DNA from: Marsupella aquatica
Taxonomy: Eukaryota; Plantae; Marchantiophyta
DNA: 64,000 nucleotides
Direction: 5' to 3'
NCBI GenBank assembly: GCA_973895155.1
Contig: OZ316893.1
Location: forward strand, 3,392,490-3,456,489
Part shown: piece after piece, positions 6,901 through 32,315 of the stretch
How positions within the stretch are numbered: the stretch's first letter is position 1
Layout: every line of letters starts with the position of its first letter
Made by a program: the position numbers and the translations under genes
Notes under the pieces: model-generated
Told to the model about the DNA's origin: nothing
The model's input: only the letters and a program-made list of their open reading frames with translations
The model's database searches: none

Positions 6901-8053
6901 TGGGCATGGCTTGAGTCACTGCTGCTTCCCCTAAATCATCATCATGTCCACCATTAGAATACGGCACAAAATTGCTCACTGCCTGGGGCTCATTCTCTAT
7001 GCCCGCACTCGAAATTGGACCTTTCCCTGTCATCTGCGGTTGGTCCTGAACCTCCTCTACTTCACCTTCCTCTGACTTCACATCCTCAACATCTTCACCC
7101 GCATTCAAAATTGCACCGTTTTCAATCAAATCCTCCTCACTCCCCCCGTCAAGCTCATCAAATGACTCGTCCTCAGCTGTGAGCCTAGCTTTAGGCATAG
7201 GACTTTGGGGCTGGGACTGTTCAATGCCTATGTTAGAAGCCTCAACGCTACGGGCATCAACATTGTCGTCAAGTTGAGAGGATTTCTGGTGTGAGGGGGT
7301 TTTACCTTCTGATTTTTCGAGAACCAAGGGCAGAAGAGCATCCACAATACTAGAAAAGCTGGAATCCTCCAAGGTCTGACCAATGCTCTCGGCGAGTTGA
7401 GAAACACGGGATTTGAATTCCTCTTCGGTGGAATTGTCAATCGGTGAGGTGTCTAGAGACGAATTCCCGGAGATCATTTCATTCAGCCTTAAGAGGGCCC
7501 CTTGCTGCGAAGCCCCCAGTTTATGAGGGTTTCCAACTAAGCCAGGGCCTTGCATGGAATCGACCGGGGATGACATTTTAGGGCTGAGGGCAGTGTCGTA
7601 ACTGGCTTCGGACGATGCAGCCATGCGCTCCAACGCACTGTCGAAACTCTCCCCGGATCCACGACTGCCCCTTCCATCTTCTTCTTCCACTTCCTCCTCT
7701 ACTTCCCTGGCACCAACATCGTCATCGACGTCGAGCTCGTCTTGCTCGTCCGAGACGGGGGCTCGGACACGGAGTGGGACTTCCTGCTCTTCATTTCTGC
7801 TGCCACTGAGGTTCGAATTCTCGTCTGGCTGTTGTTGTTGTGGCTGTGGCTGTGGCTGTGACTGTCCAGGGGGGGCTGCTGCTGCGTCCTCATAAGCGTC
7901 GGGCTCGGGATCGTGGAGGAGAATGTCTTGCGCTTCCTCTTGCTCTTCCTTTCTTTCGGATGGGGATTCAGCGATCTGATTCTCGGCGGAGGGGCCATAC
8001 TTGGTTTTACTGGAGGACCGCAATCCGGACGACATCTTCCGTAGTAAATTCAT
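3935..8053 (-). CDS. TOC132: Chloroplast outer-envelope preprotein receptor GTPase, Toc159/132/120 family (copy 1, 1372 aa, intronless)
   Basis: Long acidic A-domain; G-domain GKTGVGKSATINSIF and DTPG; M-domain PPSFDSDNP...WDHD...; C-terminal RASSSEQLQM. The exact subfamily member is uncertain. Confidence 0.93.
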   Translation of the reverse strand: MNLLRKMSSGLRSSSKTKYGPSAENQIAESPSERKEEQEEAQDILLHDPEPDAYEDAAAAPPGQSQPQPQPQQQQPDENSNLSGSRNEEQEVPLRVRAPVSDEQDELDVDDDVGAREVEEEVEEEDGRGSRGSGESFDSALERMAASSEASYDTALSPKMSSPVDSMQGPGLVGNPHKLGASQQGALLRLNEMISGNSSLDTSPIDNSTEEEFKSRVSQLAESIGQTLEDSSFSSIVDALLPLVLEKSEGKTPSHQKSSQLDDNVDARSVEASNIGIEQSQPQSPMPKARLTAEDESFDELDGGSEEDLIENGAILNAGEDVEDVKSEEGEVEEVQDQPQMTGKGPISSAGIENEPQAVSNFVPYSNGGHDDDLGEAAVTQAMPKAKLSSEDEDVIEEREDDELSADGQPEEENEEPVEETIGEVDNQNDGLPSKIRAVPSDLDDSVILPQSAYESPIQESNDIGNNDEESVPAKVQSSSEQGEESQTRPLAKLSDEDAQLPEDQPEVKPASSGAPEVTGETEVNKSVDEGATKGDESAEEKAEGEPETFLVNVDDVEEGDGEDEEDEEDEEDNEEDEDGFMETLLRSAEPSSSGEAAPAAPSLGSAGPSLPARPTRAVRSSLPSLEPAARAAQQPRSTEGATIRSSSSASESQANDEPADGNEETREKLQSIRVKFLRLALRLGQSGHNVVVAQVLYRLGLAEQLRGGRGNTRNTAFSFDRASTIAEEQERAGPEELDFDCTIMILGKTGVGKSATINSIFDEAKTGTNAFSPSTNKVQVITGHVHGIKVRVIDTPGLLQSIVDQRHNERIMASVKGFIKKQSPDIVLYFDRLDMQSRDYGDLPLLRTITDTFGAAVWFNAIVVLTHASSAPPDGPNGLPLSYEMFVAQRSHVVQQTIRQAAGDMRLMNPVSLVENHIACRVNRSGERVLPNGQVWKPQLLLLCFASKILAEANSLLKLQDNTPGRPFGQRSRVPPLPFLLSSLLQSRAPLKLPDEQVGDEDDSDEELEEDDSSDEDEDYDQLPPFRRLAKEEVAELDEENRANYFEELAERERLFQKKQWKEELKRRREMKKRMVEAPTDLSQFGPDDGLEEEARSAAVPVPMPDMVLPPSFDSDNPTHRYRYLETANQWLVRPVLETHGWDHDNGYDGMSVEKMFVIGDKIPTSVSGQITKDKKDANLNMEAAASLKHGEGKVTLAGLDVQTVGKDLGYTLRSETRFSNFKGNKTTGGLALTLLGDTVSAGMKIEDRLLVGKRVKVVVNGGAITGGGDVAYGGSLEATLRDKEFPLSRTLSTLGVSIMDWHGDLAVGGNLQSQFMLGKTMMVGRANLNNRGAGQISIRASSSEQLQMTLIGIIPIVRAIANRLFGQSQQ

Positions 8054-8844
8054 CGCGTCCGACCTCTGAGGCTCTCCCTTTGCCCGTTAGACAGGTTTGA
8101 CAAACCTGCAATCCTAGAACATTCCGCAAGAGATTTGCACAAGGTGTTGGGAAATTCTTCCGTCATTCATCCATATTCCTCCACAGCTAAGTTACTGCAA
8201 AACGGGAATCTTCGCTCCTCTCCAGGCCCCAACTAAGCCTCCCTTCCTTCCCTGTTTCCTGATGTTTATATACCTCTGTACTCGTGCTCCTAATTCGTTG
8301 TGACATTCCTGTCACATTTTCAAGGGAGTACAATCAAAACCCTTACGTGCCTTGTCTCTTTTTGAGAGCGGAATCTCAGGCTAGAGAATATTTCTCCTCT
8401 TCAAAAGCCCTCTACGGCAGGGGAAGGAACTCAATTCTCTGTTCCTGCATTCTGCTCCCGTCCTGCCAAACCTTCCGGTCTGAGTGTGGACAGGAACCTC
8501 ACCTGACTCTGTCCAAATTCTTCCAGGAAATGTCTCTCGTGTCGGCCTCTCCTGCCACACCCCCTCAGTGGAACACCTCGCCTACTCCGCTTTCAAATCG
8601 CAAAAACCCCTGCACCCTCCCTCCGCCTTCGCTTTTCGAGAGCGTCCTCCACTTCTCCTCCCTCTGATGATTCTCTGAATTCTCCAAAACAGTCTCCCTC
8701 TCTCTCTCTCTCTGCAGGTCCTCCTGTCCTGCCAACGACCCTCCCACCTCGGTCTATGAGGTCAATAGATCCTCGTTTCTCTGAGCGAATCTTATTCGTT
8801 CCCTCCTCGAAAACCCGGTATTCCCTCCCTCCAATCAACAAAAC

Positions 8845-12860: not shown

Positions 12861-14938
12861 CTGTCATGTCAATCAGGATGTAGATCTGCAGCCTTTTGAA
12901 TATATGCATCCTTACTAATTTGTGTAATTTTTTGGCTGATGCAGATATGGCTCCCGCTGTTGGGTACATCCCTGCAACGGCGGGTCCAGGAGTGCAAGAG
13001 ACTCCTGCAATGATCGAGAGCCCTACCACAACTGAGGCAACAATTGCTCTTAATGAGATGGTTCCTATGGTAATTGAGTTGACTCCCATGATTGAGAGTG
13101 AATTATCTTGTGAAGTGAGTGCAGATGGCAAGGTCGACTGGAAGGATGACGGCTGGGTTGACGAGTACAATTGGGATGATCATTTTGAGAATTTGCAGCC
13201 CAGCTCTGTTGTTGTGAATCCTGTCCAGGCACTTTTTACAAAAGTTCAATGGATCACCAACTGCACTATTTCGATTTCTATTGGAAAGCTCGGGAACTAA
13301 TGTCGGAGTTACTTGTAGTTACTTGTAGATTGATTGTAGTAAGCTGCCTGCATGGCACTTTTGCTCAGTAGTTAGGACGTCCGTTAGACATAGATATTAG
13401 AGACAGTAGATACTAGTATTACTTGCACATGGTTTTGTCAGACAAACCACACTGTTCACGAGAATTGGTCAGATGACCCTTATTGATGTAATTTTTTCAA
13501 TTGTTTCTCAATAAAGTTTCACTCTCCACAGCGGGAGTTTTCATTTTCAAAAAAGTTATATCAACCGTATGTAAACCGTATAAAATAATGAGATATCCTC
13601 CACCCAAAAAACCCTAACATGGCAGCAGCCTAAAGCCCCAAAAAACATTACAACCACCCAATGACCTTAACGTGTAAGATAAGTGAGATAAGTGCGGTCT
13701 GGTCTAGGGTTCCTAGTCTGGTAACCTTCGTAACCAGACTAGAAAATGAAGAGAGCCTGACGGGAACCTGACTGGAGGTTTGTCAGGTGGTTGTAGCTCT
13801 AAATATATAGGATAAGTAGGGCGTGTCAAAGTCTCCCATAACCAAAGTTTTACAGTTTTTTTTTTTTAAATCTATCACCCTTAGGGGGTATTTATTTTGG
13901 TAGCTCATAATGATTTTGTCCTGGTCATAATATTGTTTTATGCCCTGAGCATAACTGAGTTACACTTGTGCTTTGACAAGCCCTTATTGCCTGTGTTGGG
14001 GTTACTAGCATGTAACCTTGTGAAGGAAAAGTGTAAAAAACCTGACAGGTGGCTATAGCGCACAACATATAGGATAATTGTGGTCGTTGGATCTAGCTGG
14101 GGTTACTCGCATGGGACTTTCTGACCTGAAAGTGAGGAAAACCTGCCCAGTGGTTGTAGCGCACAACATACAGGATGATGGCTGTCGGGTTTGGGATCAC
14201 TAGCATGTAACCCCTGTGACCAGAAAGTGAAGAAAGTTACCTGACCGGTGGTTGTAGCACACAACATATAGGATAATGGTGGTCGGGTCCGGGGTTACTA
14301 GCTATTAGACGCTCCATGGACCCAACACTAGACACAAATCCTGAATCCCAACCACAGTCCACTACCAATTCAGATGTTGGTGAAGGTGACACAAATGACC
14401 AGAGCCCTCCTACTGCATACAAGGACCTAGATTTATATGCAAATCCTTTGGATACCTCATATGTACCAACCTTGAAATCGGTGTGGATCCTCCCAAGGTG
14501 TCTCATCAATCCAGATTATTAATCTTTGTTGTGTCCTCGATTTGATGTACCACTGATCTAGAACTTGTCTTGGTCGAACATGGACTAACCCAAGTGCTTG
14601 CAAAAAGGACGACACTATGTGAGAAAACAATAGTGCTCTACAAAAAAGTTGCTTAGGTGATTGGACAATTGTCACTAGACTCAAGTAAATAAGAGGTTCC
14701 ACTGTCAAAGTAAGGCATTATCAGCTGTGCAGCAGTGGCGATCGAGGCCATCAGAGAAGCACGTGTTCTAAGTATTGAGTGGAATGAATGTGGCCCTGAA
14801 GCCGGTTGGAAACTGTGAGGAGGGGGTCTGGTCTCTTCAACAACAATGTGGCTAGATTGATTAAAATCAGAGAGGTCTGTATGCTCAGACACATCCACCA
14901 TGAGATTTCCTCTATGACAGCTTCTGCCTGCACCACTC

Positions 14939-15268
14939 TGTCACACCATTCTGAGTAGTGTAGTAGTATATCGTGCTATTAGAGTATGTACGTTTGGTAT
15001 GAGTGCTATTGGAGCCGATAAGGTTCTGTCAGGTTTGTGTGAGAGGGTACTTCTCACTTGTGAGGCATTGAAAGGTCATCTTTCAATGTTGAGCCTTGGA
15101 GAGAGAGGAGCTTGAGTGTGGCTATGGTGGCTGTGAGCTCCGCTTGTGTAACGTGGATTCCTTGGGTAGTGCAAGGTGCGTTGGCTTGACATACGTGTGT
15201 GATCGGATCGGTGCGGGATCGATGGGGTATTGTTGACCGAGATCATTGTGCCGATTGTATGGAGATTA
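14939..15268 (+). repeat. Terminal repeat A1 (330 bp)
   Basis: Matches 24245-24574 with 3 G/A differences by eye. Confidence 0.95.
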
Positions 15269-15536
15269 CATTGAAAGATCACATTCGAAATCTGTTGTAC
15301 GGACTGTGCGGATAGAAGTTCGATTGATTGAGTTGTCGATGGTTCGTGGTAGCTCGGATCGTGTGTTGTTATCGAACAGATCGTTGGTTTCTTGACCTGT
15401 ATCGTTGTTGTCCGATCGGCTTGCTTCCCGATCGATGTACAGATCTGTGATTGGTGACAGGTTTTGAGTTGGAGGTCGATTGATGATTCGTGGAGGAAAG
15501 CGAATGTTGAGTAGATGTTGGACAGTGGAAGTCGAT

Positions 15537-16085
15537 CCGTGAGGCTTCAGATCCGATTGCCGGCTACTGTGAGGCTTCAGATCTGATTGTCGGCTACTGT
15601 GGGGCTTCAGATCTGATTGCCGGCTATTGTTGGATGATGTTGGCAAGGCGCAGGTAAAGCGACGGCTCTTTTCCTGAAGGAACGGAGCTGCCAATGCCCC
15701 GTGCGACGATATCATCGTTTCAGTGAAAGAAACGAGGGTCAAAGGTGTTGAATCAAGCTGCTGCCAGTTCTGTGGAAGGGCTGCATTTTTCATGAAGGAA
15801 ATCGACAGTTTTCGGGAGCTTTTCGTGAAGGAAGTAGTCATTTTTGGGGTCAGGTGTGAGGCGCACGAGGTCACCCATCCCGAAAGTGCTCGTGTGAGGC
15901 GACGCGTGAGGTCACCCATCCCGAAAGTGCTCCCAACCGTGAGCGCGAAGTCACCCATCGCGAGCGCAGGCAGGTGCGAGGTCGAGGTCACCCATCCCGG
16001 GGCTATTCCGGGCCGTGAGCGCGAGGGGAGGCACAAGGTCGAGCACGAGGAGGTCACCCATCCCGGGGCTATTCCCGGCCGCGAG
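15537..16085 (+). repeat. Tandem repeats in the retrotransposon 5' leader
   Basis: 3 x 30-bp GTGAGGCTTCAGATC.GATTG.CGGCTA.T (~15539-15630) and 5 x GA(G/A)GTCACCCATC (~15867-16065); the region is CG-rich. Confidence 0.85.
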
Positions 16086-16541
16086 CGCTTAACTGGCAAG
16101 TTCTCATCCCACCTTGTGTACACACAAGCTTTGACAACTTGTTGTTTAGATTCAAGCGTCAGGGGGCTTTATACACTTCCCGGTTTGTTTAGAGGCCTAT
16201 TCTAGGCCAAATCAGAGGCAGTTTGAGAGTTTTTGATACTTCTGAGTCCATCTAGACTCACAGATTGAACCAATTTTGCCTTGGTTCTCATCTACAACAT
16301 TGGAGGGCCATTGTGAAGCCTATTATGAAGGCTCTTCCTTGAACCTTATGCACATTGTCATATTGATTTGCATTTGCTTTTGTGTGGAGAGTTGAATGGT
16401 ATCCATTCTTGTTTCTGGATCCTCTTCACACATGTTTCCTGTTTATGCGCCATGTTAGTTTCGTGTGGGCGCTTGATTCCATAGGAGTGATCCGGGTTTG
16501 CAACTGGACATTCTAGTGTGCTGTGTATTTCTCTCTTGGTG

Positions 16542-18550
16542 ATGTTGGAGTGATGCCCAACACACCATGGTGAGTGCTTGTGGTGCTGACAGGGATAGAT
16601 TGCCCTTAGGGTTAGCACATAGATTAGGTTAGGGTTGGTCACCACAGATTCTTTTGGTGCTGCTGGATTACCCGATGGACGACGGACCAGTTTCACTCGG
16701 AGTGGGGCATAGTTTCGGCCAGCGGCATTGGTAGCAGTTAGCAGTGCAGCTTCAGACAGTGATTCTGATGAGGACTCAGTGACCAGTTCTCCTCATCATC
16801 AGGTGGTTGCACCTTTGTTGTGGGATATGGACGAGATGTACGGGGCTACAAAGGGCCCACGACGATACTCTGGTGCAGTTGGCACAATTGATCTGGATGA
16901 CTTCATCCAGGAGTTTGATACGTGGTGCGATATGCAGACATTGCGTAATGTCACGTTGTTTACCCCTTTCATGGCATGGAAGGGATTATTCCAGCATTTG
17001 GAGGGGCCACCAATGGATGACTACCATGAGTTTCGGAAGGCTCATTTGGTTGAGATTGAGGCATGGAGGCAGCATTGGTCACCTAATTACGTGTCCATCA
17101 CCTATGGCACTAGTGCGGCTGCCCAACCAATTGCCACAGTTGCTGCTTCTTCTAGCAGCACTAGCCAGAGTGGCACACCATCCACCAGCAGCACTCCAGC
17201 AGCATCCACCACTACTCCTGCCGGTGTGATTGTGACAGGAACTAGAGTTGCGCCAGCATTTAATCCTGTGGTGGAATTCTTTGAGGTACTGAAGCAGAAC
17301 TATCAGGGTGTGAGAACTGATAAGTTGAAGGGTCTTCAGGAGTTCCAACGCAAGACTGGAGAAAGCCTACGTGAGGCATACACACGTATGCGCAGATTGA
17401 TCACTATCACCAAGGGAGTGACAGAGGCTCAGGCAGTCCAGTTTTGGTATGCAATTCTGGACAGAGAATTGCGACGCAGAGTGAGAGATGTCACTCTGCT
17501 TAGGGATGCAGATCCCACATTAGCAGTTGTTTTCACCCTTTCTGAGCGCATTGAGCTCAATATGGTGAATGAGAAGGTGGTGACTTTCGGATTTGCCAAG
17601 GAAGCACCAAAGGTTGCATCTACATCCACACCACAGCCTACTGCACGGAAGAGCCAGAGGGAGAAGCCTACTGCATGAGAGTCTACCAGCCAGAGACCTG
17701 TGCCCTCTTATGCTGGACAACAGTCAGGATGTTGGACCTGTGGTGGGGATCATGCACAGAGATATTGTCCAGATCATAGAGGATCAGGGGGAGCATCAGC
17801 GCCTGATCAGCGACAGTGTGATCACTGTGGAGCTCCTGGACACACCAAGGATAGGTGTTTCTCACTCCACCCTGAGTTACGGAGAGGAGGATCCCGTACA
17901 CATGATCAGGGAAGAGGAGGAGGAGGTAGAGGTGGTGGACGTGGTCGTGGCATGCCACATGCAAGGAGACAGGGAGGTGACGCTGCCCCTGCTATAACCA
18001 TAGATCTAAAGGATGCTAAGATTGCTCAATTGGAGCAACAACTAGCTGCCATGGCTAGTTCCCAGGTGAGACCTAATTCTGGTGATGGGGCATTTACATC
18101 CTATGGACCTTCCACATCCCATGGTCCTTCCACATCTTATGGAGCTGATGGAGACCTTGCCACCATGGGATTCATGTGTGGCACTGCACATATTGATGCA
18201 TCAGCAGCTTTGACACGTGGGGCAGCCAAAGCTCTTGAGCCCTGAGGAGCAGTAGTGGAGTTAGATCCACAAAGGGGGGATGCACGTCGGCAGACAAAGC
18301 TTCCTCAGTCTTTTACATTGTCAGAGACAGTTCAGACTACCTCTATGAACCCGGTTCGGACAAACCCTGATGTGGGTAAGTTGGCAGAATCAGGTAGTGA
18401 TGCAGCAGGGATGACAGGTACCTTGCTGGGGGCGGCTACTGCCATAGTACGCACCCCATTATTTTTAGCGACAGACATGCTGAACTTGGGAGTTGGTCCT
18501 GCAGAAGTGTTTAGATTGGCAGCTACACTCTGTGAGGACACTGCAAGTTG
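16542..18550 (+). pseudogene. gag: gag with two zinc knuckles, interrupted by in-frame stops
   Basis: One frame from ATG 16542 through ORFs 16728, 17700 and 18255. Retrotrans_gag-like FQRKTGESLREAYTRM; knuckles CWTCGGDHAQRYC and CDHCGAPGHTKDRC; RGG-rich tract. Confidence 0.85.
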
Positions 18551-19479
18551 CTTCCCATGCAGAAGCAACTTGCAGTGTTGATGCAGTGAAGACCATGCCA
18601 CCTACTGCTACTAGTGAGACATGGCATGCAGCAGCAGCGAGGTTGGTGGATTTACCAGCACGCCCTGCATTTGAGAGGACTAGGTTTAAACCTAGTGTTG
18701 TGTCATTGGATAATCGGAGTGGTATCTTCCGATTAGTTGGGCCTTCTGGAGCAGTATACCAGCCAGAGAGAGTGTTACTAGATACTGGTGCTCAGCCCTT
18801 GATGTTGGGGAAGTCTGCCATACGTGGATTGGGATTGCGTCCAGAGGATTTGGAGGATTGTCCCTTTCCCATTCAGAATTCATTGGGGGGACCTACACCT
18901 ACACAGCATATCACCAGGAGACCACTTGATTTGAGGATTCAAGAAGGTCATACCACAGATAGCTCACAGATACAGGCGCGAGCTATTCTAACTAAGGCAG
19001 AGTCATATGATGTGTTGGTGGGATGTACAGTGCTCTACCCCATGGGATTTATTCTTGATTTTTGGGAGGAATCAGTGTCATATAGACCTGATTGGCAATC
19101 AGGAGATGCTCGATTGAGCAAATTGCCAGTGAGATTTAGTGGACCTATGGGAGGCCCTAAATCCACACCATTGTCTTTGGCAGCATTCAGTGGTGTAATT
19201 GCTGGACCTGATGATTTGATTGAGGGTAATGCGCATGCAGCCAATGTTCCACCATTGGAGGAGTCTCATGAGGAGCACATCATGCGAGGATTACCTGTTG
19301 GCAGTGTTGTGCCACCAGTGTGGGGCACTGCACAAGCCTTGCCACAGGCAACAGCACGATTGGTACATGATGCATGGCGTCATGCTTTTACACCACAGTT
19401 AGGAGCAGAGCAGTCTCTTGTAGATGGACCTGTGACTCTTTCACCATTGGATACCACTCCTATTGCTTGGCAGTATCCA

Positions 19480-20440
19480 CCGGAGGGTATTTGTTTGTTG
19501 GATCTTTTTGGTGGGATTAGCACTGGATTGGCTGCTGTTCTTCAGGCAGGAATTCCTGTGCGTCGTTATTTGTATGTGGAGATAGATGAGACAACACGGA
19601 GGGTCTCATTGCGACATGTGGCTATGTTGGTGGATAGATATCCACAGTTGCTGCCAGTGGATGCTGTTCGTGGTTATCAGCATGCACTACCTGCTGATAT
19701 TTCATTGTTGGGGGCGGATCATCTACATCGTGTTGGCCCCATTGATTTGGTGATTGCTGGTTGGCCATGTCAGGGCCAATCTAGAGCTGGCATTGGGCAT
19801 GGACTTCATGATCCACGCTCTACATTGTTTTGGGAGATGTTACGGGTGCTGCGTCACCTCCAGCTACATCAGACACAGTCTCCAGCATACATTTTGGAGA
19901 ATGTGCCATTGTTAGGTGATGATCGTAGTCGGATTGTTGCCAGTGTTCACCAGGTGAGGTCTTGGATTGGACCTGTTGTGTTATTGGATGCTGCACGTGT
20001 GGGTTCTCGTGCACATCGTCCACGCTTATGGTGGACTAATTTGATCCCATGTGAGGTGCTGAAGCGCGCATTTGACAGCATTCCACGCTCACCAGCCTTA
20101 GTGGTGGATGATATTTTGGATCTAGGGCGTCGTGCACAGGGTGTGACCCAACCTGATAGACCTCCATTGGCAATGGTCAATGCAGTTGGGTGCCCACGTT
20201 GTGCATTACCCACTCTTGTAAGCCACTCTGCTTCATATGCATTCAGAGCAGGTGGCCCTGGACTTGTATGGGACACAGCTCTCCAGCAGTTAGTGGAGCC
20301 TACTGCTGATGAGAGAGAGCGTGCTATGGGATTTTTGACTGGCACCACTGCAATTGCCTCTATGTCAGAGGGTTTGCGGCGCCAGGTTCTTGGTCAAGCA
20401 ATGGATTTGAATTGTTTGACTTGGATTATCAGCTTGGGAG
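19480..20440 (+). CDS. DNMT3-like C5-cytosine methyltransferase domain within pol (no internal stop)
   Basis: Motif I LDLFGGISTG; II VEID; IV IDLVIAGWPCQ (catalytic Cys); VI ILENV; VIII AHRPRLWWTN; IX ERERAMGF; X RRQVLGQAM. Confidence 0.92.
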
Positions 20441-22875
20441 TAGCTAAACAGTTGCGGATGCGCTCTGCCGGAATTACTGATTGTCCCTTGGTGAGCTTGC
20501 GATCCACTGAGACAGTATTGACCACAGCTGGGGGCGAGCAGACAGTCCATGGACCTATGACAGGATTGGTGGTTGGACAGATTGTTGAGCAGGAAGGGAC
20601 TGCTCAATCTATTGCTAAATAGCAATCATCGGCTATCTCTTCTACCCTACAAAGAGATATTAGGGATTTGGTAGAGAGTTGGGAACCACAGCTTGGCCCT
20701 AAATTAACAGGGGAGGAGAGACGTCGCATGCATCGAAATCTGAAGAGTTATTGGAATTGTTTTGCATTCAGCATGAAGGATTTGGGGACATTGAAGGGCC
20801 CTGGTATTCAGATTGAATTGGCTAGTGATGCGCCAATCTTTCGTAGACCATACCGTTATAGTGACATGGAGAGAGCTCTGATTCAAAGCAGAACTCAAGA
20901 TTTGTTGGAGGCTGGATTGGTGGAGATTTCATATGGGGAGTATGCATCTGCCACAGTGATGCCAGCCAAGAAGGATGTGCATGGCAATTACACAGATAGG
21001 CGCATGTGTGGTGATTACAGACCTATTAATCGCCAGACAAAATCTGATCGATATGCCATGCCCACACCTGAGGAGATCTTTGATGCTGTGGGGCATGCAA
21101 AGGTTTTCAGTTCATTGGATCTGAGGGCAGGATACCATCAGCTTCCAATTAGGCATGCTGACAGGTCCAAGACAGCATTCTGGGGGATTGATTCTTATGG
21201 CAAAGATCGTTTGTATCAATGGTTATTCTTACCATTTGGGTTGAAGAATGCACCAGCTGAGTTCCAGAGAGTCATGGATCGAATCCTTGCAGGTTTGGAT
21301 TTTGTCAGATGTTATATTGATGATATTTTGGTCTATTCTTCTACTGTGGAAGAACATCAGCAGCACTTGCAGACTGTGTTGGAGAGATTGAGAGCACATG
21401 GGTTGAAGCTCCATCCTAGCAAGTGTAAGTTCTTCCAACACCAGATTGAGTATTTGGGCCACACCATATACCTAGGGGGATTGGGTGTACAGCAGACTAA
21501 AGTGGAGGCCATTACACAGATTCCTTGTCCTACTGATGTGAGTAGAGTTCGTGCATTCTTGGGATTGGCGAGCTACTACAAGAGGTATGTTAAAGGATTT
21601 AGCCAGCTTGCTAAACCTTTGACCATACTCACTAAGTTGGATCAGGAATGGATTTGGGGTGATGACCAGGAGCATGCCTTTTAGGAGTTGAAGCAAAGGT
21701 TGGCATCATCCCCTATTTTGAGAAGACCCATTTCAGGCAGACCATTTCAGCTACACACTGATTGGAGTGGAGTAGGACTTGGAGCAGTGCTGACTCAGAA
21801 GGATGATGAGGGGAATGAGTTTGTTGTGGCTTATGCCAGTAGATCAAACAATTCAGCAGAGGCTAAGTATAGCTCTTATGAGGGAGAGTGTTTGGCAGCA
21901 GTGTGGGCTGTTGCACACTTTCGTTGCTACTTGTTTGGTAACCCCTTCACCTTGATCACTGATCATCAGCCTCTTAAGTGGTTAATGGAGTCTGACAAGC
22001 TTACAGGGAAGCTTGCACGATGGGCATTGTTGTTATAGGAGTATGATTTCCAGGTGGTGCATAGGCCTGGAAAAGTGAACTTGGATGCAGATGGATTAAG
22101 CCGCAATCCATGTACCAGTCAGCAGGATGAGACTGGAGCCAGATGGCATGATGAGTCAGATAGGGAGATGGTGCCAGGATGGCATGCATCTGCCTTTCTT
22201 TGTTGGGTGCCAGCATACAGTGGATCTGTGGACTCTACCTCATTGGATGGAGTGGATGATGAGTCTTCAGATGTGGATGTTGGTGAAGTAACTTCTGGAC
22301 AGCAAGATATTCACAATGATGTGAGAGTGTTGGAATATCTGCGCAATAGTTCTATTGTTGGCAGTGTTGATGCCAAGGAACGTGACAGGGTTCTACAGAG
22401 AGCCAAGAGGTTTCGATGGGAGGGAAACCATCTTTTGAGAGTACTGCATGATGGTAGGATGTTGGTGGTACCAAAACCATCACAACGAGTATATTTGGTG
22501 CGACATGCGCACGAGGAGTTGGGTCACTTTGGTGTGAAGCGCACTTACAGCTTGCTGCAGACGCAGTATTAGTGGTGTGGTATGCACACTCATGTCCAGC
22601 AGTTGATAGCTAAGTGTGTGGTATGTGACAGAGTGAGAGCATCATTTAATGCTCCCACTCCCCAGTTGCACCCATTACCGATCATGGGTTTGGGATATCG
22701 TTGGAGTTTGGATTTTGTTGGTCCATTACCTCTTACCCAACGTCATAATCGGTATGTTTTGGTCATGGTGGAGCACTTCTCCAAGTGGATTGAGCTAGTG
22801 GCGTTGCCAGATAAAGCCAGTGGAGGAGTTGCTGCTACATTTTTGGATCATGTACTCAGTCATTTTGGAGCACCA

Positions 22876-23241
22876 GCTGAGGTGTTGACTGATCAGGGAA
22901 CTGAGTTCCGTGGAGAGTTTGAGAGTTTGTGTAAACAAGCTCTGATTGATCATCGTACTACCTCTCGTGATCATCCTGAGGCAGATGGATTAGCTGAGAG
23001 AGTTGTGCAAACTGTGAAGAGAGGATTGCGTAAGTATGGCTTGCAGGTTGGTCATCTCGCTGAGGTGTTGACTGATCAGGGAACTGAGTTCCGTGGAGAG
23101 TTTGAGAGTTTGTGTAAACAAGCTCTGATTGATCATCGCACTACCTCTCGTGATCATCCTGAGGCAGATGGATTAGCTGAGAGAGTTGTGCAAACTGTGA
23201 AGAGAGGATTGCGTAAGTATGGCTTGCAGGTTGGTCATCTG
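22876..23241 (+). repeat. In-frame 183-bp tandem duplication inside the integrase core
   Basis: AEVLTDQG...LQVGHL occurs twice (22876-23058 and 23059-23241), with about one internal mismatch. Confidence 0.95.
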
Positions 23242-23790
23242 GGAGATTGGGATCTCCAGCTACCTTGGTTAGCTATGGGCTACCGTTTCAGTCGGCAAGC
23301 ATCACTTGCATCCTTCTCACCCTACTTTTTGCTCTATGGTAGAGAGCCAGATTTGCCAGCAGCTATTCGTCGTCATGCTGCACCAGTTGTGAACTTGGAT
23401 GATCCTGATGTTTGGGTCAAGGTGTGTTCAGAGAGAGCACGGGTATTTCAGAGAGTGATGCCCATGGCTTTTGACAACCTTGCCATTGCCCAACATCGTG
23501 ATACTTTGAGGTATGCCACTATTCGTGGAGGAGGTTACCGTGCAAGCATTCGACGATTTCATCCTAGTGATTATGTTTATTTGCAGCAGACAGCACCCAC
23601 GACACTTGATGTGACCGCAGGCCGGACAATCTTACGTGTGCGTGAAGTGTTGCCTTCTGGTGTCCTGATGTTGGAGGGACGCGATGGTATGGTTTGGAAG
23701 GATCATGTGCGCAACTGTGCACCATGTCACCTTCCCAACATTGATGGTACAGTAGATCCAAGCTTGGCACATGTTCGTGCTGGCTTGAAA

Positions 23791-23928
23791 TGTATGTTGT
23801 GTGGATCTGCTCAGGGAGCAACTACTATGTTGATTTGTGATAAGTGTTCTAGAGGATGGCACATGTCATGTTTGACACCACCATTGCAGGTGATTCCTAG
23901 TGGATCATGGTTGTGTCCTCAGTGTCGG
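23791..23928 (+). CDS. PHD finger at the integrase C-terminus
   Basis: CMLC...MLICDKCSRGWHMSCLTPPL..IPSGSWLCPQC (C4HC3 with the conserved W). Confidence 0.92.
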
Positions 23929-24095
23929 TGAAGCCGACTAGTTATCATTTGTGTTCTCTTGGTAGATATGGATTGCAGGTAGGTGATCGATGGGGCTCAC
24001 TTGCACCCGGCCTCCTGATCTTCACACCTAAAAAGGTGTATATCAACCTTGTAGAACTCATGGCTAGCTAGAGTTAGGGGACCTTACTCCCAGCT

Positions 24096-24104
24096 AGGGG
24101 GGCG
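24096..24104 (+). promoter_or_regulatory. Short polypurine-tract-like motif immediately before repeat B1
   Basis: AGGGGGGCG directly before ATTGTG at the B1 start. Confidence 0.55.
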
Positions 24105-24105
24105 A

Positions 24106-24711
24106 TTGTGGGTTTTGGACATGTGTGGACATGAGTTCCACTTGTATTCCATTCTCTTGTATTTGTGATGTGGCAGTGTGACTATGTCTGGATGTATGTG
24201 ACAAGCGATGTATGTTGTGTAGCGATATGTATGCGCACGACAGCTGTCACACCATTCTGAGTAGTGTAGTAGTATATCATGCTATTAGAGTATGTACGTT
24301 TGGTATGAGTGCTATTGGAGCCGATAAGGTTCTGTCAGGTTTGTGTGAGAGGGTACTTCTCACTTGTGAGGCATTGAAAGGTCATCTTTCAATGTTGAGC
24401 CTTGGAGAGAGAGGAGCTTGAGTGTGGCTATGGTGGCTGTGAGCTCCGCTTGTGTAACGTGGATTCCTTGAGTAGTGCAAGGTGCGTTGGCTTGACATAC
24501 GTGTGTGATCGGATCGGTGCGGGATCGATGGGGTATTGTTGACCGAGATCGTTGTGCCGATTGTATGGAGATTATTGTGGGGTTTGGACATGTGTGGACA
24601 TGAGTTCCACTTGTATTCCATTCTCTTGTATTTGTGATGTGGCAGTGTGACTATGTCTGGATGTATGTGACAAGCGATGTATGTTGTGTAGCGATATGTA
24701 TGCGCACGACA
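24106..24711 (+). repeat. 3' repeat block B1-GC-A2-B2
   Basis: B1 (24106-24242) and B2 (24575-24711) are 137 bp with one mismatch; A2 is 24245-24574. Confidence 0.95.
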
Positions 24712-27154
24712 ACTCCTAAAATTAAACAAGAAACTCTTGGAATGGGATTCCAAGCTCTGATGAGGACAGCCAAAATAGATGGCAAATATGAGGCAAATAT
24801 GAATTGCAGATGGCTTCATGGAATTGCACTACTCACACTGATTTGTTAGCACATTTTGCAGATTAACATGCATTGAATGTAGTATCAAAATATCAATTTA
24901 AGTGACAGTGAATGTACACACCTGATAGAAGAGTCTCAAATTTTTACAGAATCAGACTTTCAATCGAGCAGTGTCGCATGGAAAGTGAAGATGGACTCCA
25001 AGTCTCCCATGAGTGTTGATTGCATGGTAGCAGATGTGGAGCCTATCCCAAGTATCCAATAATCATCTTCTCTCTTGCATTGTTATTCTACAAATGTGCC
25101 GGACAATTTTCAAGTTGGAATTTGAACTCTGACTTAGTTTAGGTATGGCAGCACAGTAGAACTCTGGATTATTGGCCGGGTTTGTGATGAAGCCAAGCAG
25201 GTAGCAATGGCTTGTAGAGCAGATGCAGAGCTACGCTATTGAGAAAGTTGGCAACATGAGACTTTTGGTGCGCTTATAGATGGCTCTATTTTTGTTGCAT
25301 AGCTGAGGCCACGTCGGCCTGCCTAGCAGCTGAAAGAAAGCATTTCACCCTGATGATGGAAGAAGTGCTGAGCACCACCCTAAGCTATGGAGGGAGGTGC
25401 TGCAAAACTTTGCCAGCCTTTGTGGGTCCCATTAGTCAGGTCCCCACCCAGTCACAGGGCCTATAAGCCAAAATCTGATGGCACTCCTTAAATCCAGGGA
25501 GATCCAAAGTCATAGGTCTAGAGCGATTTGCTTGAATGATAAACCTCCAAAATGGAAAGAAAAGGATACTTGATGGGACCCCTGAGGTTTTGGTTACTTT
25601 GATTTGAGGTCTATCAAGGTCTTTCAACAGTCTAGATCACTATGTGGTCCCATCAAGTAACACTTTTCATTTTAATTGTGCATTAAAGCTTATACCTCCA
25701 TAAGCCAAGTACAATTTTGAGAAAGAATATTCTTAGCATCTCCTTGACACAAATTAGCATGTGCACCCCTGGAAAGTGAAAAATCTTAATCTAAGATTAC
25801 CTTGCTTCTCACCCATGATTCAAACTCACAAGGATGAAGGGAAATGTTGTATTAAAGGGGTTTCCTACATTTCTGATATCACCAAAGCCAAAGAAGGAAG
25901 GATGGAAGATCCTATCCAAACCCCACAAGATCTTATAACTTGTTGTAGGATGACGCTAAGTCCCACCAAGTCACAGGTGTAGTAGCCAAAATCTGAGTGC
26001 TTGCCTTTAATCTAGAAAGGACTACCGTTAAAAAGAAGTGGAGAAAATTTAGATAAGAAAGTTTCCCAGTATCTTGTCTACACAGTGTAACTTAAAAGTT
26101 TCCCTTGGTCTCACCCACCATTCTGGCATCTCACATCGGATGGAAGAGGAAACGTTGCTAAATTTGACATGGTTTCCTCTATTTCTCAGATCCCAAGAGC
26201 CAAGGAAGGAAGGACAAAAGGTCCCAACCCTACATAATTCACCAGCTTTTCTTAGTTTCATTAACCAGTTTCCCATCAAGTCACAAGGTGTATTAGCCAA
26301 ATCTGACTGTTATCCTAAATCAAAGGGTAGTAAGTCAGATTTAGAGGATTAAAAAAGAAGAAGATTCCTCTTAAATGGGCTGTCCACCTTTTACACCTTC
26401 ACTACTTGACACCCTTTTGGTTTCCAAAAACTTTGCAACAACAAAGTTGACCATTAATATCTCCCTTTTCATTTGGAGGATTTGGCCCTTCTTGGACCGA
26501 ATCACTCTGATATCTCTAGTTTTCAAGGATAATTGAGAGAGTTTTGATTTTCTTAAGCTCATTCCATTGCAATGACCACACTTTATACTTCCATACTAAC
26601 TTTGTCAATTAGTACATTCTTTGATACAATTTTTAATTATTTTGCCACTAAAGATGTTCAACTTGATAATACTATCATAATTTTCTTGTATTTACAAATA
26701 TGAGAACAAGTTCAACAAAGTAACCAAGGTGTGAATATACAAAAACCATGGTATATTTATAAATACAATAAAAAAATAATCATGGTCTCAATATACAAAA
26801 ACCATGGTATATTTGTAGATATAATAAAAATCATTACAGTATTATAAATTAAAACATCCATAGTGACAATCTAGTTACAATTCTTTGATATCTAATGAAA
26901 TCTTTGAAATCTTATTTCTTGGTTTTGCTACATATGGTCTATATCAGATCTTTCCAATGTTCCAAATATCATCAAATTTCATTGAAAATTGAGGGATTCA
27001 CAAATTTTCAATCATGATTATCTCATTGTAAATAACATAAAAACAATACTACTGCTATAAGTGACGTGGCTGTGTAATTGAAGCTGTGAAAAGGAAAGAC
27101 CCCAAGAAGGCCAAAGAGGGCCGAGGGGTGTACCCACATTTCCCATATACCCAA

Positions 27155-27397: not shown

Positions 27398-28424
27398 CCC
27401 CCTTCTGTCCTCCTGTTGCGCCCCCTTTGATCCCTCATCCGTTTCCCAAATCCCCACTACTGAGAGAGTGCCACACCTGCCCCTCCCGTGCCCGTGCCAG
27501 TGCCAGTGCCAGTGGATGGGGCGGACTTCGAGAACGAACAATTTTAGCCGCGAGTTTTGACTCGGAGAACAACAACAGTGCCGTCGTTCGAAGAACACAA
27601 AGAGAATCGCAGGGTTTTTGGTTTTTGGAGGGGATTGTGATTCGTTTCTCAACAAAGCGCATCGTCCTGCTCCTCTTCCACATCGCCCATCCGGCTCCGC
27701 ATCAGTGAGAAGTTGATTAAGACGAGGCCCTGATACGAAGGAGGGAGCTCAGGTCTGTTCGCCATAGCTCCGTCGGTCTTTGCGAGCGCTCGGTTGGTTC
27801 TTCTATTCGTTTGCAACTAGAATTGTTCAATCTGAGTGAGAAGTCGTTCAAGTCGTTCGCTGCCAGGTCGAAAGCATTTTCGCAAGCTCCCGCAAAGAAA
27901 CCTAGCTCGATCGATCCACTCTCACTCTGTCTCGGTTTCGTTCGCTACTCACTACGTTAGGTTTAAGCATTTTGTCCAAACTGGGCACTGAATTTTTAGC
28001 TTTGCAAACACTCTGTCTCCGCACGGACGGGCTTTTCGAGCTTGCAACGATCTTAGATTTTGACTTACTAAAATTTCTGAATGATGGCTCTTGCAGTTCA
28101 CTTGAATGTCTGAGGCAATCGGGACTCTCGGTTGTCATGGTCTAACTAGCAACTGACAGAAATTAAGAATAATCTGGCCCGGATTCTCCCTGCGCACGGA
28201 CGGACGGACAATATTTTGTTAGGGAGAGCCCTCACTCCGCTTGGGAAATTTATTGGCTGCGTTGGCGTAGCAGCTAAGGAATGCGTGAAGGGAGGGAGGA
28301 TTTAGATTTGTGACCCTAGGCTCTCGACGACGGCAACTGCACGTTTTGAGGAGCCTGTCGAGGGGCGGGCAAGTACAGCAGTGACACAGACAGAGTGACG
28401 GCAGGGATTCAGATTTAGGAGGGA

Positions 28425-31400
28425 ATGGACCTAATCCGGAAAATGTCCGGATTAAGTTCTTCCCAGGATCTGAGTGCAGCTGTGGAGCAGACCAAGACGG
28501 AAGACAAATGGGAAGAATCGTCCGACAGGAACGGAGGAGAAGAAGAAGAAGTGGAGCAGGAGGAGGAGGAGAGTAATGACGTTCTTCTCCACGATGCCGA
28601 GCAGGACGACGGGGACATTTTCGAGGACGCGGCACCAGCACTCGGGCAGCAACAAAGGCAGCAGCAGGCTGACCTCGAGGAAGAGGACCGGGAAGATGAC
28701 GAGCAGAGAGTGACCAGCACAAACGATGAGCAAGAGGCGCCGGCTGCTGCTTTTCCAGTTCGTGTCGCACAGCCTGGTTCCGACGATGCTGATGGCGCCA
28801 GGGAAGTAGAGGAGGACGAAGATGGCATGGCCAGTCACGGAACTGGGGAGAGTTTCGATAGTGCGTTGGAGCGCATGGCTGCATCGTCAGAGGCTGGCTT
28901 CGACGGGGCCTCGAGCCCTAAAATGTCGTCCCCGGTAGGTTCCATGCAAGGCCCTGTTTTACTTGGAAACCCTCCCACTGCCTTGAGCCCGGCCCAGCAG
29001 GGTGCCCTCATCCGGCTCAATGAGATGCTTAGCGGGGATTCCTCTATGGACACCTCCGTGATCGATAATTCCACGAGAGAGGAGTTCAAGTCCCGTGTCA
29101 TCAAACTTGCTCATAGTCGTGGCCAGAGCGAAGAGGATCTTAGCTTTGTTAGTATTGTGGATGCACTTCTGCCCTTGGTTCCTGAAAAGTTGTCGGAAGA
29201 CCGTGAAGCTGCCGAACCTGGGGATTCTGCAGGTACCGGCGAAGATGTCAAGGGGCTTCAGTGTCGCATGCCTAAAACGAAGCTGTTTGCCGAAGAGGAG
29301 GAGGAGGAGGAGAAGGCTGTTGAGAATGGTGTTTTGGAGAATGGTAATGGTCATGCCAAGGAGCTAAAGGAGAATGGTGACGAGAACAAAGCTCCCCAAG
29401 AGCAGGATGAGCCTCAGATCAAACAGGAAGAAACTCCTCTTAGCTCGGACACCAAAGAAGCGGGCGATGTACCTGTGAATTTCGTGCTGGATGGTAACGG
29501 GGAACCGGAAGAAACCAATGGACAGGTGAATACTCAGGACGATTTGCCTTTGAAGAGCAGATCGATCCCTTCCGGTTTGGATGACAGTCAATTGCTTCCC
29601 CATTCAGAAAACGAGAGCACAAATGCAGAACCGAAAGAAAATGGGGACAATGTTGAACACTCGTCACCAACAGAGGTGCCTGAGGAAGCTACCGGAATTA
29701 ATGATTTTTTCGAAAGCGCAGACGAATTTCAGACTAGCGGAATCCCCCAAGTCGTCCCTCCAGCTCCTGAAGGCCGCGATGGTGTGGAAAACTTTCCCCA
29801 AGCGAACGGTGAAGCTGATGAAGAGAATTTGGCTGTCAGCCCCGATGATGAGGAGGGAGAGGATGAAGAAGATGATGAAGAAAACGAAGATGATGAAGAC
29901 AACGAAGACGACGAGGACAGTATTATGGAACCGTCGGAAGCTTTAGCAGCATTGATTCGTGGTGCGCAAACCACAAGTGGAGGCGAGGATGTAGCCCCGC
30001 CTTCGTTGGGCTCAGCAGGGCCTTCTTTGCCTGCACGACCCACACGTCATGTCAGGTCTTCTTTACCATCACTGGAGCCAGCTGCTCGTGTCTCACAGCA
30101 GCCTCGTAGTACTGAAGCTGCCACGATTCGGTCGTCCAGTTCTGCTGATGAAAGTCAGGCCGATGGTGAAGCCGCCGATGGCAATGAGGAGACACGAGAG
30201 AAGCTTCAAGCGATACGCGTCAAATTTCTTCGTCTTGCCTTAAGACTAGGGCAGTCTCCACACAATGTCGTTGTTGCACAGGTTCTCTACAGGCTTGGAT
30301 TGGCAGAGCAGCTGAGAGGTGGGAGAGGTAACAGCCGAAATACAGCTTTCAGTTTCGACCGAGCTAGTACTATTGCGGAGGAGCAGGAGAGAGCCGGGCC
30401 AGAGGAGCTCGACTTTGCTTGCACCATAATGATGCTGGGCAAGACAGGCGTTGGGAAGAGTGCCACCATAAACTCTATCTTTGATGAGGCAAAGACTATA
30501 ACTAATGCTTTCAGCCCTTCTACTAACAAGGTGCAGGTAATCACAGGGCATGTGCATGGCATCAAAGTAAGGGTGATAGACACACCAGGTCTTCTACCGT
30601 CTGTTGTTGATCAAAGACACAATGAGAGGATAATGACGTCGGTCAAAGGTGTCATCAAGAAGCAGTCTCCTGACATTGTGCTATATTTTGACCGCCTAGA
30701 TATGCAAAGCAGAGATTATGGGGATTTGCCGTTACTGCGTACCATCACAGACACATTTGGGGCTGCAGTGTGGTTCAATGCCATTGTCGTATTGACCCAT
30801 GCTTCTTCTGCTCCCCCTGATGGTCCGAATGGACTTCCTCTGAGCTATGAGATGTTTGTTGCTCAGCGGTCCCATGTGGTGCAACAAACGATACGACAGG
30901 CGGCAGGGGACATGCGGCTTATGAATCCGGTGTCACTTGTGGAGAATCATAGAGCATGTAGAGTTAACCGAACGGGGGACAGAGTGCTTCCCAATGGGCA
31001 GGTCTGGAAGCCTCAGCTTCTGCTGCTGTGTTTCGCTTCAAAGATTCTTGCTGAAGCCAATTCTCTTTTGAAGCTTCAAGATAATTCCCCGGGGAAGCCC
31101 TTTGGGCAACGATCCAGAGTGCCTCCTCTGCCATTCCTTCTCTCCTCTCTTCTTCAGTCTCGTACTCCGCTGAAGCTGCCAGATGAGCAACTTGAAGATG
31201 AGCATGAATCGGATGAGGAGCTTGAGGAAGACGACTCGTCTGATGAAGAAGAGGATTATGACCAGCTGCCTCCTTTTAGGCGACTCGCGAAGGAGGAAAT
31301 AGCCGAGCTTGACGAAGAGAACCGTGTAAATTATTTTGAAGAGCTTGCTGAGAGGGAGAGGTTGTTTCAAAAGAAGCAGTGGAAGGACGAGTTGAAGAGG

Positions 31401-32315
31401 AGGAGGGAATTGAAGAAGAGGATGGCAGAGGCACCCACAGATCTGTCTCAATTTGGGCCAGATGATGGGCTTGAAGAGGAGGCAAGGTCTGCAGCAGTGC
31501 CGGTACCAATGCCAGACATGGTACTTCCTCCGTCCTTTGATTCGGACAACCCAAGTCATAGGTATAGGTACCTTGAGACTGCAAACCAATGGCTGGTCCG
31601 ACCGGTGCTGGAGACACACGGGTGGGACCATGACAATGGGTATGACGGTATGAGTGTCGAAAAGATGTTTGTCATTGGAGACAAAATTCCCACCTCAGTT
31701 TCAGGGCAGATCACCAAGGACAAGAAGGATGCGAATCTGAATATGGAAGCTGCTGCATCACTGAAGCACGGGGAAGGCAAGGTCACCTTGGCAGGCTTGG
31801 ATGTGCAGACAGTCGGGAAAGATCTTGGGTACACATTGCGAAGTGAGACTAGGTTCAGCAACTTCAAGGGGAACAAGACAACAGGAGGCCTGGCCGTGAC
31901 CGTCCTCGGGGACACAGTTTCAGCAGGCATGAAGATTGAGGATCGGCTGCTCGTTGGCAAACGAGTGAAGCTGGTTGTGAATGGAGGTGCCATTACTGGA
32001 GGTGGTGATGTAGCATATGGTGGGAGTCTTGAAGCAACTTTGAGGGGCAAGGAGTACCCTTTGAGCCGTACTTTATCTACCCTGGGAGTGTCTATCATGG
32101 ATTGGCATGGGGATTTGGCAGTTGGGGGCAACCTGCAATCTCAATTCATTTTGGGCAAAACAATGATGGTGGGAAGGGCTAACCTGAATAACAGAGGGGC
32201 TGGTCAAATCAGCATTAGGGCTAGTAGTTCTGAGCAGCTACAAATGACACTTATTGGCATTCTCCCCATTGTTCGTGCTATTGCGAACCGGCTGTTTGGG
32301 CAATCACAGGAGTAG
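28425..32315 (+). CDS. TOC132: Toc159/132/120-family receptor GTPase (copy 2, 1296 aa, intronless)
   Basis: Same A/G/M architecture as copy 1; G- and M-domains nearly identical at the protein level. Confidence 0.93.
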   Translation: MDLIRKMSGLSSSQDLSAAVEQTKTEDKWEESSDRNGGEEEEVEQEEEESNDVLLHDAEQDDGDIFEDAAPALGQQQRQQQADLEEEDREDDEQRVTSTNDEQEAPAAAFPVRVAQPGSDDADGAREVEEDEDGMASHGTGESFDSALERMAASSEAGFDGASSPKMSSPVGSMQGPVLLGNPPTALSPAQQGALIRLNEMLSGDSSMDTSVIDNSTREEFKSRVIKLAHSRGQSEEDLSFVSIVDALLPLVPEKLSEDREAAEPGDSAGTGEDVKGLQCRMPKTKLFAEEEEEEEKAVENGVLENGNGHAKELKENGDENKAPQEQDEPQIKQEETPLSSDTKEAGDVPVNFVLDGNGEPEETNGQVNTQDDLPLKSRSIPSGLDDSQLLPHSENESTNAEPKENGDNVEHSSPTEVPEEATGINDFFESADEFQTSGIPQVVPPAPEGRDGVENFPQANGEADEENLAVSPDDEEGEDEEDDEENEDDEDNEDDEDSIMEPSEALAALIRGAQTTSGGEDVAPPSLGSAGPSLPARPTRHVRSSLPSLEPAARVSQQPRSTEAATIRSSSSADESQADGEAADGNEETREKLQAIRVKFLRLALRLGQSPHNVVVAQVLYRLGLAEQLRGGRGNSRNTAFSFDRASTIAEEQERAGPEELDFACTIMMLGKTGVGKSATINSIFDEAKTITNAFSPSTNKVQVITGHVHGIKVRVIDTPGLLPSVVDQRHNERIMTSVKGVIKKQSPDIVLYFDRLDMQSRDYGDLPLLRTITDTFGAAVWFNAIVVLTHASSAPPDGPNGLPLSYEMFVAQRSHVVQQTIRQAAGDMRLMNPVSLVENHRACRVNRTGDRVLPNGQVWKPQLLLLCFASKILAEANSLLKLQDNSPGKPFGQRSRVPPLPFLLSSLLQSRTPLKLPDEQLEDEHESDEELEEDDSSDEEEDYDQLPPFRRLAKEEIAELDEENRVNYFEELAERERLFQKKQWKDELKRRRELKKRMAEAPTDLSQFGPDDGLEEEARSAAVPVPMPDMVLPPSFDSDNPSHRYRYLETANQWLVRPVLETHGWDHDNGYDGMSVEKMFVIGDKIPTSVSGQITKDKKDANLNMEAAASLKHGEGKVTLAGLDVQTVGKDLGYTLRSETRFSNFKGNKTTGGLAVTVLGDTVSAGMKIEDRLLVGKRVKLVVNGGAITGGGDVAYGGSLEATLRGKEYPLSRTLSTLGVSIMDWHGDLAVGGNLQSQFILGKTMMVGRANLNNRGAGQISIRASSSEQLQMTLIGILPIVRAIANRLFGQSQE

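Follow-up and report, generated by a model that had tools for sequence, protein, structure and literature searches.

The 64-kb stretch of Marsupella aquatica DNA analyzed here (the window, to whose positions all coordinates refer) contains a Ty3/Gypsy retrotransposon with split direct repeats, in the order ACTC, A1 (330 bp), 8.8 kb of internal sequence, B1 (137 bp), GC, A2, B2, ACTC. A comparison with related elements makes it probable that this retrotransposon produces a complementary DNA (cDNA) with two long terminal repeats (LTRs), that the ends of this cDNA are joined into a circle, and that a DDE integrase opens the circle at a palindrome inside the repeat. The two-LTR circle would then most likely be the productive integration substrate. 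With less assurance, but on balance in favor, we extend this proposal to the whole clade of Gypsy elements that carry a methyltransferase and a PHD finger, from green algae to mosses and liverworts: in all of them the integrase attachment (att) site would have moved into the unique 3′ region (U3) of the LTR, integration would obligately use a circle, and the two-LTR circle would be the only productive substrate.

The two A repeats differ at 3 of 330 sites and the two B repeats at 1 of 137, and the outer termini of the element are TGTC...GACA. The palindrome formed where B1 meets A2 (GACAGCTGTC, 24239-24248) has a single occurrence in the 64-kb window, and no second copy of the element was found there. 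An initial annotation, made from the sequence alone, had described the A-open reading frames-B-A-B layout, the repeat lengths, the termini, the ACTC duplication, a palindromic B1/A2 join with two extra bases (GC at 24243-24244), and a purine-rich tract resembling a polypurine tract (PPT) before B1; all of these coordinates hold (Table 1).

Contigs of independent public sequencing runs reproduce both junctions with host DNA with zero differences (runs X1 and X4 for the left junction, X2 and X3 for the right); no contig of these runs crosses the whole element. Because the junction contigs break off 25-26 bases into the repeats, sooner than a unique junction would allow, we infer that many other copies share the ends of this element. 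In run X2, at least 28 contigs (from 12 of 222 loose-end rows) leave the end of B for long unrelated sequence, 9, 8, and 11 of them at 24242, 24711, and 24712, respectively, and their consensus agreement beyond B is only 0.42-0.45, so they enter different host flanks. Variant joins between A and B occur in other copies represented among the public-run contigs. Contig depth, used for abundance only and not for comparing junction classes, is ∼200,000-300,000 inside the element and ∼70-100 in the flank in run X1, and the element family is therefore very abundant.

An integrase-tail alignment search of metagenome contigs yielded 464 related stretches, and the best 80 (62-79% identity) were taken for a comparison of layouts. 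A simple host end was resolved in 49 of these 80 loci, one of which (L045) carries two elements. Ends in which B-A-B abuts the flank number 25 and represent 15 independent insertions; ends in which the PPT is followed by B and then by flank also number 25 and represent 21 insertions, one of them tentative and called by motif only. Three loci, or two insertions, have the fold-back ends described below. Among the 80 loci there was no end at A against host DNA and no sibling with an ordinary BA...BA arrangement, which the initial annotation had named as the observation that would overturn its reading. On the 5′ side, all 10 independent ends next to host DNA (13 loci) begin with TGTC, or with TATC in one of them, and never lie after B. 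When both ends were present (seven insertions, the window included), the 4-bp target duplication was perfect in six and had one mismatch in the seventh; the perfect duplications are ACTC (window), TCTC, AAGG, and CATA for A...B-A-B insertions and TGTT and ACTA for A...B insertions. The A...B-A-B layout recurs in 15 other insertions from four other families.

The divergence between A1 and A2 is about equal to that between B1 and B2 in five of five elements, so both repeat pairs are likely to be renewed at each insertion. In a tree of 32 copies the end types are mixed (11 changes, compared with a shuffled mean of 12.6; 37 of 200 shuffles gave a value as low), as would be expected of alternative products.

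The end-type count leaves out 31 of the 80 loci: 11 without a match to B (short contigs, interruptions, or another family), 4 that end inside the repeats, 2 from other families with the host end unresolved (L039 and L049), 5 in which B is interrupted or cut, 2 with a shortened B2, 4 that carry internal deletions, and, tallied separately, the 3 loci with fold-back ends. L049 has B, A, and the primer-binding site (PBS) in a row, which we took to be A1 and A2 collapsed in assembly; it was not scored as a canonical LTR. Within B2 of L074 (1590-2412) and of L078 lies an 830-nt TG...CA segment with a 5-bp duplication, apparently a solo LTR of another family.

All 21 of the related junctions scored preserve the internal palindrome GACA-(2 bp)-TGTC with a spacer of exactly 2 bp, whose letters (GC in 8, AC in 6, AT in 4, and GT in 3) are all GC or transition variants of it, and a longer imperfect palindrome, CAYGACA-GC-TGTCAYG, surrounds the junction. 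The palindrome is common to families whose A and B repeats gave no BLAST cross-hits to one another, whereas the PBS-side and PPT-side ends are not conserved across those families. This pattern suggests that the integrase site has been displaced to the inside of the repeat, within U3.

The positions of the priming signals point to the same arrangement. The initial annotation reported no TGG-type PBS after A1, and there is indeed no tRNA-type site, but it overlooked a 12-nt self-complement at this place, a length that none of 200 control 25-mers reaches. In 10 of 13 loci a self-priming complement lies where it is expected and exceeds every one of the 200 controls, its letters differing among three families. 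Folding of three relatives favors the primer helix (pair probability 0.72-0.95). In place of the missing tRNA-type site, a self-priming site of the Tf1 type is therefore predicted. In the relatives the PBS directly follows A and the PPT precedes B, so ordinary reverse transcription should yield B-GC-A at both ends; the reverse-transcribed repeat would then be B+A, and the A/B join would be its two ends joined. We accordingly interpret B1 as proximal U3 and A1 as distal U3, the terminally redundant region (R), and the unique 5′ region (U5). The A/B join of the window consists of the end of U5 and the first base after the PPT, and so do 10 of the 13 independent joins compared in the main related family; the other three retain G or CG of the PPT end, and one of these adds 17 nt of filler. 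These variant joins look as expected if the join is made afresh.

In the fold-back copies (L001:1283-1798, L018:3361-3878, and L021:1412-1929), B-GC-A-PBS leads into an inverted stretch made up of the first 180 nt of A. These copies, two independent insertions (L001; L018/L021), switch strand exactly at the PBS-primer pairing and end at an inverted GACA against host DNA. They are the best sign that the primer pairing occurs, and their ends at the inverted GACA suggest that the half-site, not the cDNA end, defines the terminus.

Based on these comparisons, we propose the following cycle. RNA would start near 15078 in A1, prime itself on the PBS at 15268, and end inside A2. Reverse transcription, given the positions of the PBS and PPT, would produce a linear B-GC-A...B-GC-A molecule whose natural ends lack a conserved att site, and the junction sequence suggests that host end-joining would then connect these ends to give the A/B join. 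The integrase would nick each strand 3′ of CA in GACA^GC-TGTC, and a palindrome nicked in this manner would present two CA-3′OH ends with 2-nt 5′ overhangs, shaped like processed retroviral ends. A cut after CA on both strands would explain why the termini lack GC and why a 4-bp duplication is made; the insertion product itself, with TGTC...GACA ends, a 4-bp duplication, and no GC, is what was observed. Opening of a two-LTR circle at the PBS-side palindrome would give A...B-GC-A-B, the sole form that would have R at both RNA ends and could replicate. A circle with one LTR, or cleavage of both palindromes, would leave A...B without a repeat, a predicted dead end. An internal site might also free integration from the ragged ends left by self-priming, which is a possible reason for the shift of the site.

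The initial annotation had offered two versions of this idea, replication through a circular cDNA whose internally templated junction is cut by integrase, or a single two-LTR circle (LTR = B+A) reopened at a cryptic internal att site. These are really one. The first fits all of the comparative data, with the circle and the cut as its inferred steps, and the geometry of the second is likely right, except that it would describe a clade rule and a site that is conserved, not cryptic.

Several observations weigh against integration from a circle. Two equal palindromes on a circle predict A-B-GC-A...B copies, and none was seen among the 10 5′ ends (3 or 4 of them informative), an asymmetry that is unexplained. 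A...B copies could also arise by later recombination between B1 and B2 or by collapse of short-read assemblies. In two contigs of the window family (records 5 and 10), B is preceded by sequence without a match, which may be a canonical left end. In three of the 13 loci the self-priming complement did not turn up as predicted (the match of L035 lay at another place in A; L015 and L059 were not above controls), and the primer helix of the window is absent from its lowest-energy fold, lying 4.4 kcal/mol above it with a mean pair probability of 0.16. The 32-copy tree is poorly resolved, and the three variant joins may have a single origin. In one insertion (L048:1500-1817 and L062:3280-3602), the end of the PHD coding sequence is fused to A within ∼4 nt of the primer 3′ end; it has a precise A/B join yet lacks PPT-B1-GC and the palindrome, and a later deletion or an aberrant strand transfer is conceivable for this unexplained case. 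Finally, the circle and its cleavage are inferred from sequence comparison of contigs.

The strongest rival dispenses with a closed circle, and we consider it possible but clearly less probable than the circle. Reverse transcriptase would jump from the right end of the cDNA to the left end, or two linear cDNAs would join head to tail, so that B is recopied, and the integrase, using the same att site, would cut a linear or nicked molecule at whichever two usable palindromes lie outermost. The A/B join shares one A on both sides, which suits such a jump, and the fold-back copies demonstrate that template switching can lengthen the right end as far as a half-site; a jump may also account for the lack of A-B-GC-A...B copies. 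Conversely, the PPT remnants and the 17-nt filler in 3 of 13 joins resemble end-joining. The two routes otherwise give the same products, and sequence alone cannot separate them.

It is very unlikely that the true LTR is A+B (467 bp, TG...CA) and that a normal Gypsy element lost B from its 5′ LTR and gained a spare B before its 3′ LTR. Although A2+B2 on its own resembles a textbook LTR and adjoins the target duplication, the PPT precedes B1 and not A2, the PBS lies directly after A in the relatives, none of 10 5′ ends is A-B, and 21 insertions end as PPT-B/flank without A2.

Split-direct-repeat elements such as PAT, Ngaro, and TOC1 carry an internal copy of their end-to-end junction and integrate by means of a tyrosine recombinase. 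A recombinase of this PAT/Ngaro/DIRS-like kind, acting in trans on the circle while the DDE integrase is a passenger, is similarly improbable here. The A-coding-B-A-B layout, which the initial annotation likened to that of PAT and Ngaro, is indeed shared with PAT, Ngaro, TOC1, and SymbioDIRS (PMC5890265). However, the window element has a PPT, TG...CA ends, and a conserved DDE integrase with D, D-35-E motifs; 4-bp duplications of unrelated sequence flank six of seven insertions; the 2-bp spacer is lost at the ends; and no tyrosine recombinase family was matched in the 18 frames of ≥100 aa scanned inside the element. Least credible of all is an aberrant integration or assembly error confined to the window: the lack of a contig across the whole element is outweighed by host junctions in independent runs (evidence against the mis-assembly that the initial annotation had named as a possible refutation), by at least 28 contigs with different flanks that stop at the same GACA, and by the recurrence of the layout in 15 other insertions of four other families, from which we conclude that the layout is neither a mis-assembly nor a one-off event.

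By its proteins the element is Ty3/Gypsy. It has gag followed by protease, reverse transcriptase, RNase H, and integrase in that order, a DDE integrase, TG...CA termini, and a target duplication within the 4-6 bp range (perfect at 4 bp in six of seven insertions). What it lacks is two complete identical LTRs at its ends bounded by the PBS and PPT. Because it and its relatives are A...B-A-B or A...B, with no BA...BA in the 80 loci, it is a variant and not a canonical member of Ty3/Gypsy, and it is not a DIRS element. Among named sequences, its reverse transcriptase comes closest to those of two liverworts, Calypogeia (82%) and Marchantia (77%), and more distant matches are named Ty3/Gypsy polyproteins. 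In a 128-row tree of reverse transcriptase-RNase H sequences, the element falls in a 68-row branch (FastTree support 0.998, midpoint root) of liverwort, Coleochaete, Closterium, and Haematococcus proteins, many of which have PHD or methyltransferase domains, apart from the chromodomain-bearing Gypsy elements. Named kin come from Calypogeia, Marchantia, Sphagnum, Coleochaete, Closterium, and Haematococcus; no Klebsormidium-named sequence was among the protein matches listed. Many Marchantia gene models named “PHD-type domain” (P0125, P0127, P0132, P0141, P0143, and P0372-P0377) correspond to the integrase tail of this element, and one full Pol (P0323) is filed under an uncultured cyanobacterium, probably as a contaminant.

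A split-repeat layout on a methyltransferase-bearing Gypsy element is already in print. The Fig. 4c legend of de Mendoza et al. 2018 (PMC5890265) gives KnitGypsy-Dnmt3 of Klebsormidium nitens DIRS-type repeats together with Gypsy domains, and the DIRS layout in that paper is A-coding-B-A-B. Compared by description only, KnitGypsy-Dnmt3 resembles the window element in having a Gypsy Pol with a cytosine methyltransferase and this repeat layout (PMC5890265). The window enzyme is a cytosine methyltransferase by Pfam and motifs, and this assignment does not imply the DNMT3 class. Where KnitGypsy-Dnmt3 is described, the text mentions neither a mechanism nor an att palindrome, a target duplication, or a mode of priming, and it names no occurrence outside Klebsormidium (PMC5890265). 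The preprint 10.64898/2026.05.21.726589 names a streptophyte Gypsy-DNMT3 in passing. Searches of the open-access literature, which takes in neither Repbase reports nor subscription journals, brought up nothing that accounts for the att site, the priming, or the mechanism.

Parts of the proposed cycle have counterparts elsewhere. Foamy virus integrase is reported to cleave the LTR-LTR palindrome to 2-nt cohesive ends (PMC1180852), and, as is proposed here, the DDE integrases of foamy virus and HIV-1 (human immunodeficiency virus type 1) cleave the palindromic end-to-end junction of two-LTR circles, in each strand after CA (PMC1180852, PMC4372172), leaving in foamy virus 2-nt 5′ overhangs like those of processed ends (PMC1180852). 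In those descriptions, however, joined cDNA ends form the palindrome, the normal linear molecule is regained on cutting, and the route is a side or reserve one. The window element, by our reading, has its palindrome encoded within U3, retains the actual end join in the provirus, and comes out permuted. Self-priming has been described for Tf1 and Tj1 (PMC4600332) and predicted for the plant element Tcn1 (PMC6317226). Tf1/Sushi and Tcn1 likewise have a PBS complementary to the predicted RNA 5′ end and not to a tRNA (PMC4600332, PMC6317226), a likeness judged for the window element by sequence only; unlike it, they are described with two ordinary LTRs and a chromodomain, whereas the window element has a methyltransferase and a PHD finger and gave no Chromo match in its Pfam scan. 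In copy-out/paste-in insertion sequences of the IS3, IS30, and IS256 families, a DDE enzyme is reported to nick abutted 3′ ends across a short spacer on a circle, which is integrated with a target duplication (PMC7780238). These are bacterial DNA transposons whose transposase builds the junction from flanking DNA in each round (PMC7780238), whereas the window element carries its junction inside the reverse-transcribed repeat. The NCGN target preference reported for Phygy, from a Physcomitrella non-chromovirus clade (PMC6317226), is absent here, as none of six perfect duplications is NCGN.

The coding region of the window copy has the order gag, protease, methyltransferase, reverse transcriptase, RNase H, integrase, and PHD finger, followed by the PPT, with the methyltransferase between protease and reverse transcriptase (Table 1). 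The initial annotation had missed the DNA methyltransferase, the PHD finger, and the earlier mention of this layout in print. The integrase has Ty3 Gag-Pol as its nearest solved relative (E 3.5e-13), with prototype foamy virus integrase at E 1.9e-08, and as assembled its core contains a 183-nt tandem duplication (22876-23240, 99% identical) that repeats the second D and the E. Because of in-frame stops in gag and pol and this duplication, the window copy is dead. L027 and L049 have hairpins in A equivalent to that of the window, with different letters. Neither Pfam nor a tblastn comparison with the 80 loci gave a match for an antisense frame of 300 aa (15266-16168, minus strand) over the leader.

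Table 1. Features of the split-repeat element (window coordinates; E, expect value)
Feature	Position	Strand	Basis
Left target-site duplication ACTC	14935..14938	+	Sequence
Repeat A1, 330 bp; opens with left att half-site TGTC	14939..15268	+	Self-comparison; host junction in runs X1, X4
Hairpin in A; 3′ arm (15078-15089) predicted to act as self-primer and to mark the transcript 5′ end	15066..15089	+	Sequence, folding
Putative self-priming PBS, exact 12-nt complement of 15078-15089	15268..15279	+	Comparison with controls
Long leader with short tandem repeats	15280..16712	+	3 x 30 nt at 15539-15630; 5 x ∼39 nt at 15867-16088
gag, two CCHC zinc knuckles, in-frame stops	16713..18245	+	Retrotrans_gag, weak, E 0.022
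Aspartic protease (LDTGA) and C5 cytosine DNA methyltransferase (FGG, PCQ, ENV motifs)	18484..20622	+	PF00145, E 2.6e-11
Reverse transcriptase (YIDD)	20623..21684	+	PF00078, E 2.5e-35
RNase H	21685..22038	+	PF17917, E 2.4e-36
DDE integrase (H2C2 zinc domain, rve core), one in-frame stop	22039..23790	+	Pfam rve, E 4.5e-19
C-terminal PHD finger and stop	23791..23931	+	PF00628, E 9e-11
PPT ending GGGGGGCG	24092..24104	+	Same tract precedes B in relatives
Repeat B1, 137 bp (repeat extends to the base A at 24105); closes with att half-site GACA	24106..24242	+	Self-comparison
Internal att palindrome GACA-GC-TGTC, putative integrase cut site	24239..24248	.	Spacer GC at 24243-24244
Repeat A2, 330 bp	24245..24574	+	Self-comparison
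A/B join: last base before PBS and first base after PPT; putative LTR-LTR circle junction	24570..24580	+	Sequence
Repeat B2, 137 bp; closes with right att half-site GACA	24575..24711	+	Host junction in runs X2, X3
Right target-site duplication ACTC	24712..24715	+	Sequence

The element lies between two inverted genes for TOC159/132-type chloroplast import receptors (3935-8086, minus strand, and 28419-32315, plus strand), which are 89% identical over 2488 nt, and degenerate repeats with a period of ∼100 nt (13781-14302) are found just upstream of the insertion. Elsewhere in the window are a pectin methylesterase gene with an inhibitor domain (44529-46829), another frame with a reverse transcriptase, probably a long interspersed nuclear element (49612-53040), and a piece of a 2-oxoglutarate dioxygenase (56618-57487). 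No related locus was found in IMG/VR by single protein or by alignment. Thirty IMG/VR stretches that match the junction pattern were attributed to chance, as none encodes a related protein, and a scan of prokaryote genomes gave one weak locus, which is unrelated.

In the textbook retroviral cycle the two-LTR circle is a dead end, and whether it can be an integration precursor is an old question in retrovirology. If our proposal is correct, these elements would offer a natural example of integration mainly by way of the circle; they would have a defined cut site of 10-16 bp and close relatives in the laboratory plant Marchantia, and they would be a retroelement counterpart to copy-out/paste-in insertion sequences. 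The cut site, primer, and product spectrum make the circle-precursor question directly testable. A split-repeat layout would then not need to imply a tyrosine recombinase, and an ordinary LTR whose att site has moved is suggested as a route to it. Pieces of these elements have been annotated as host PHD genes, and standard LTR detection would miss the elements themselves, since more than half of the scored insertions are without a terminal repeat. If the proposal holds, programs that search for two LTRs would overlook thousands of copies in these genomes.

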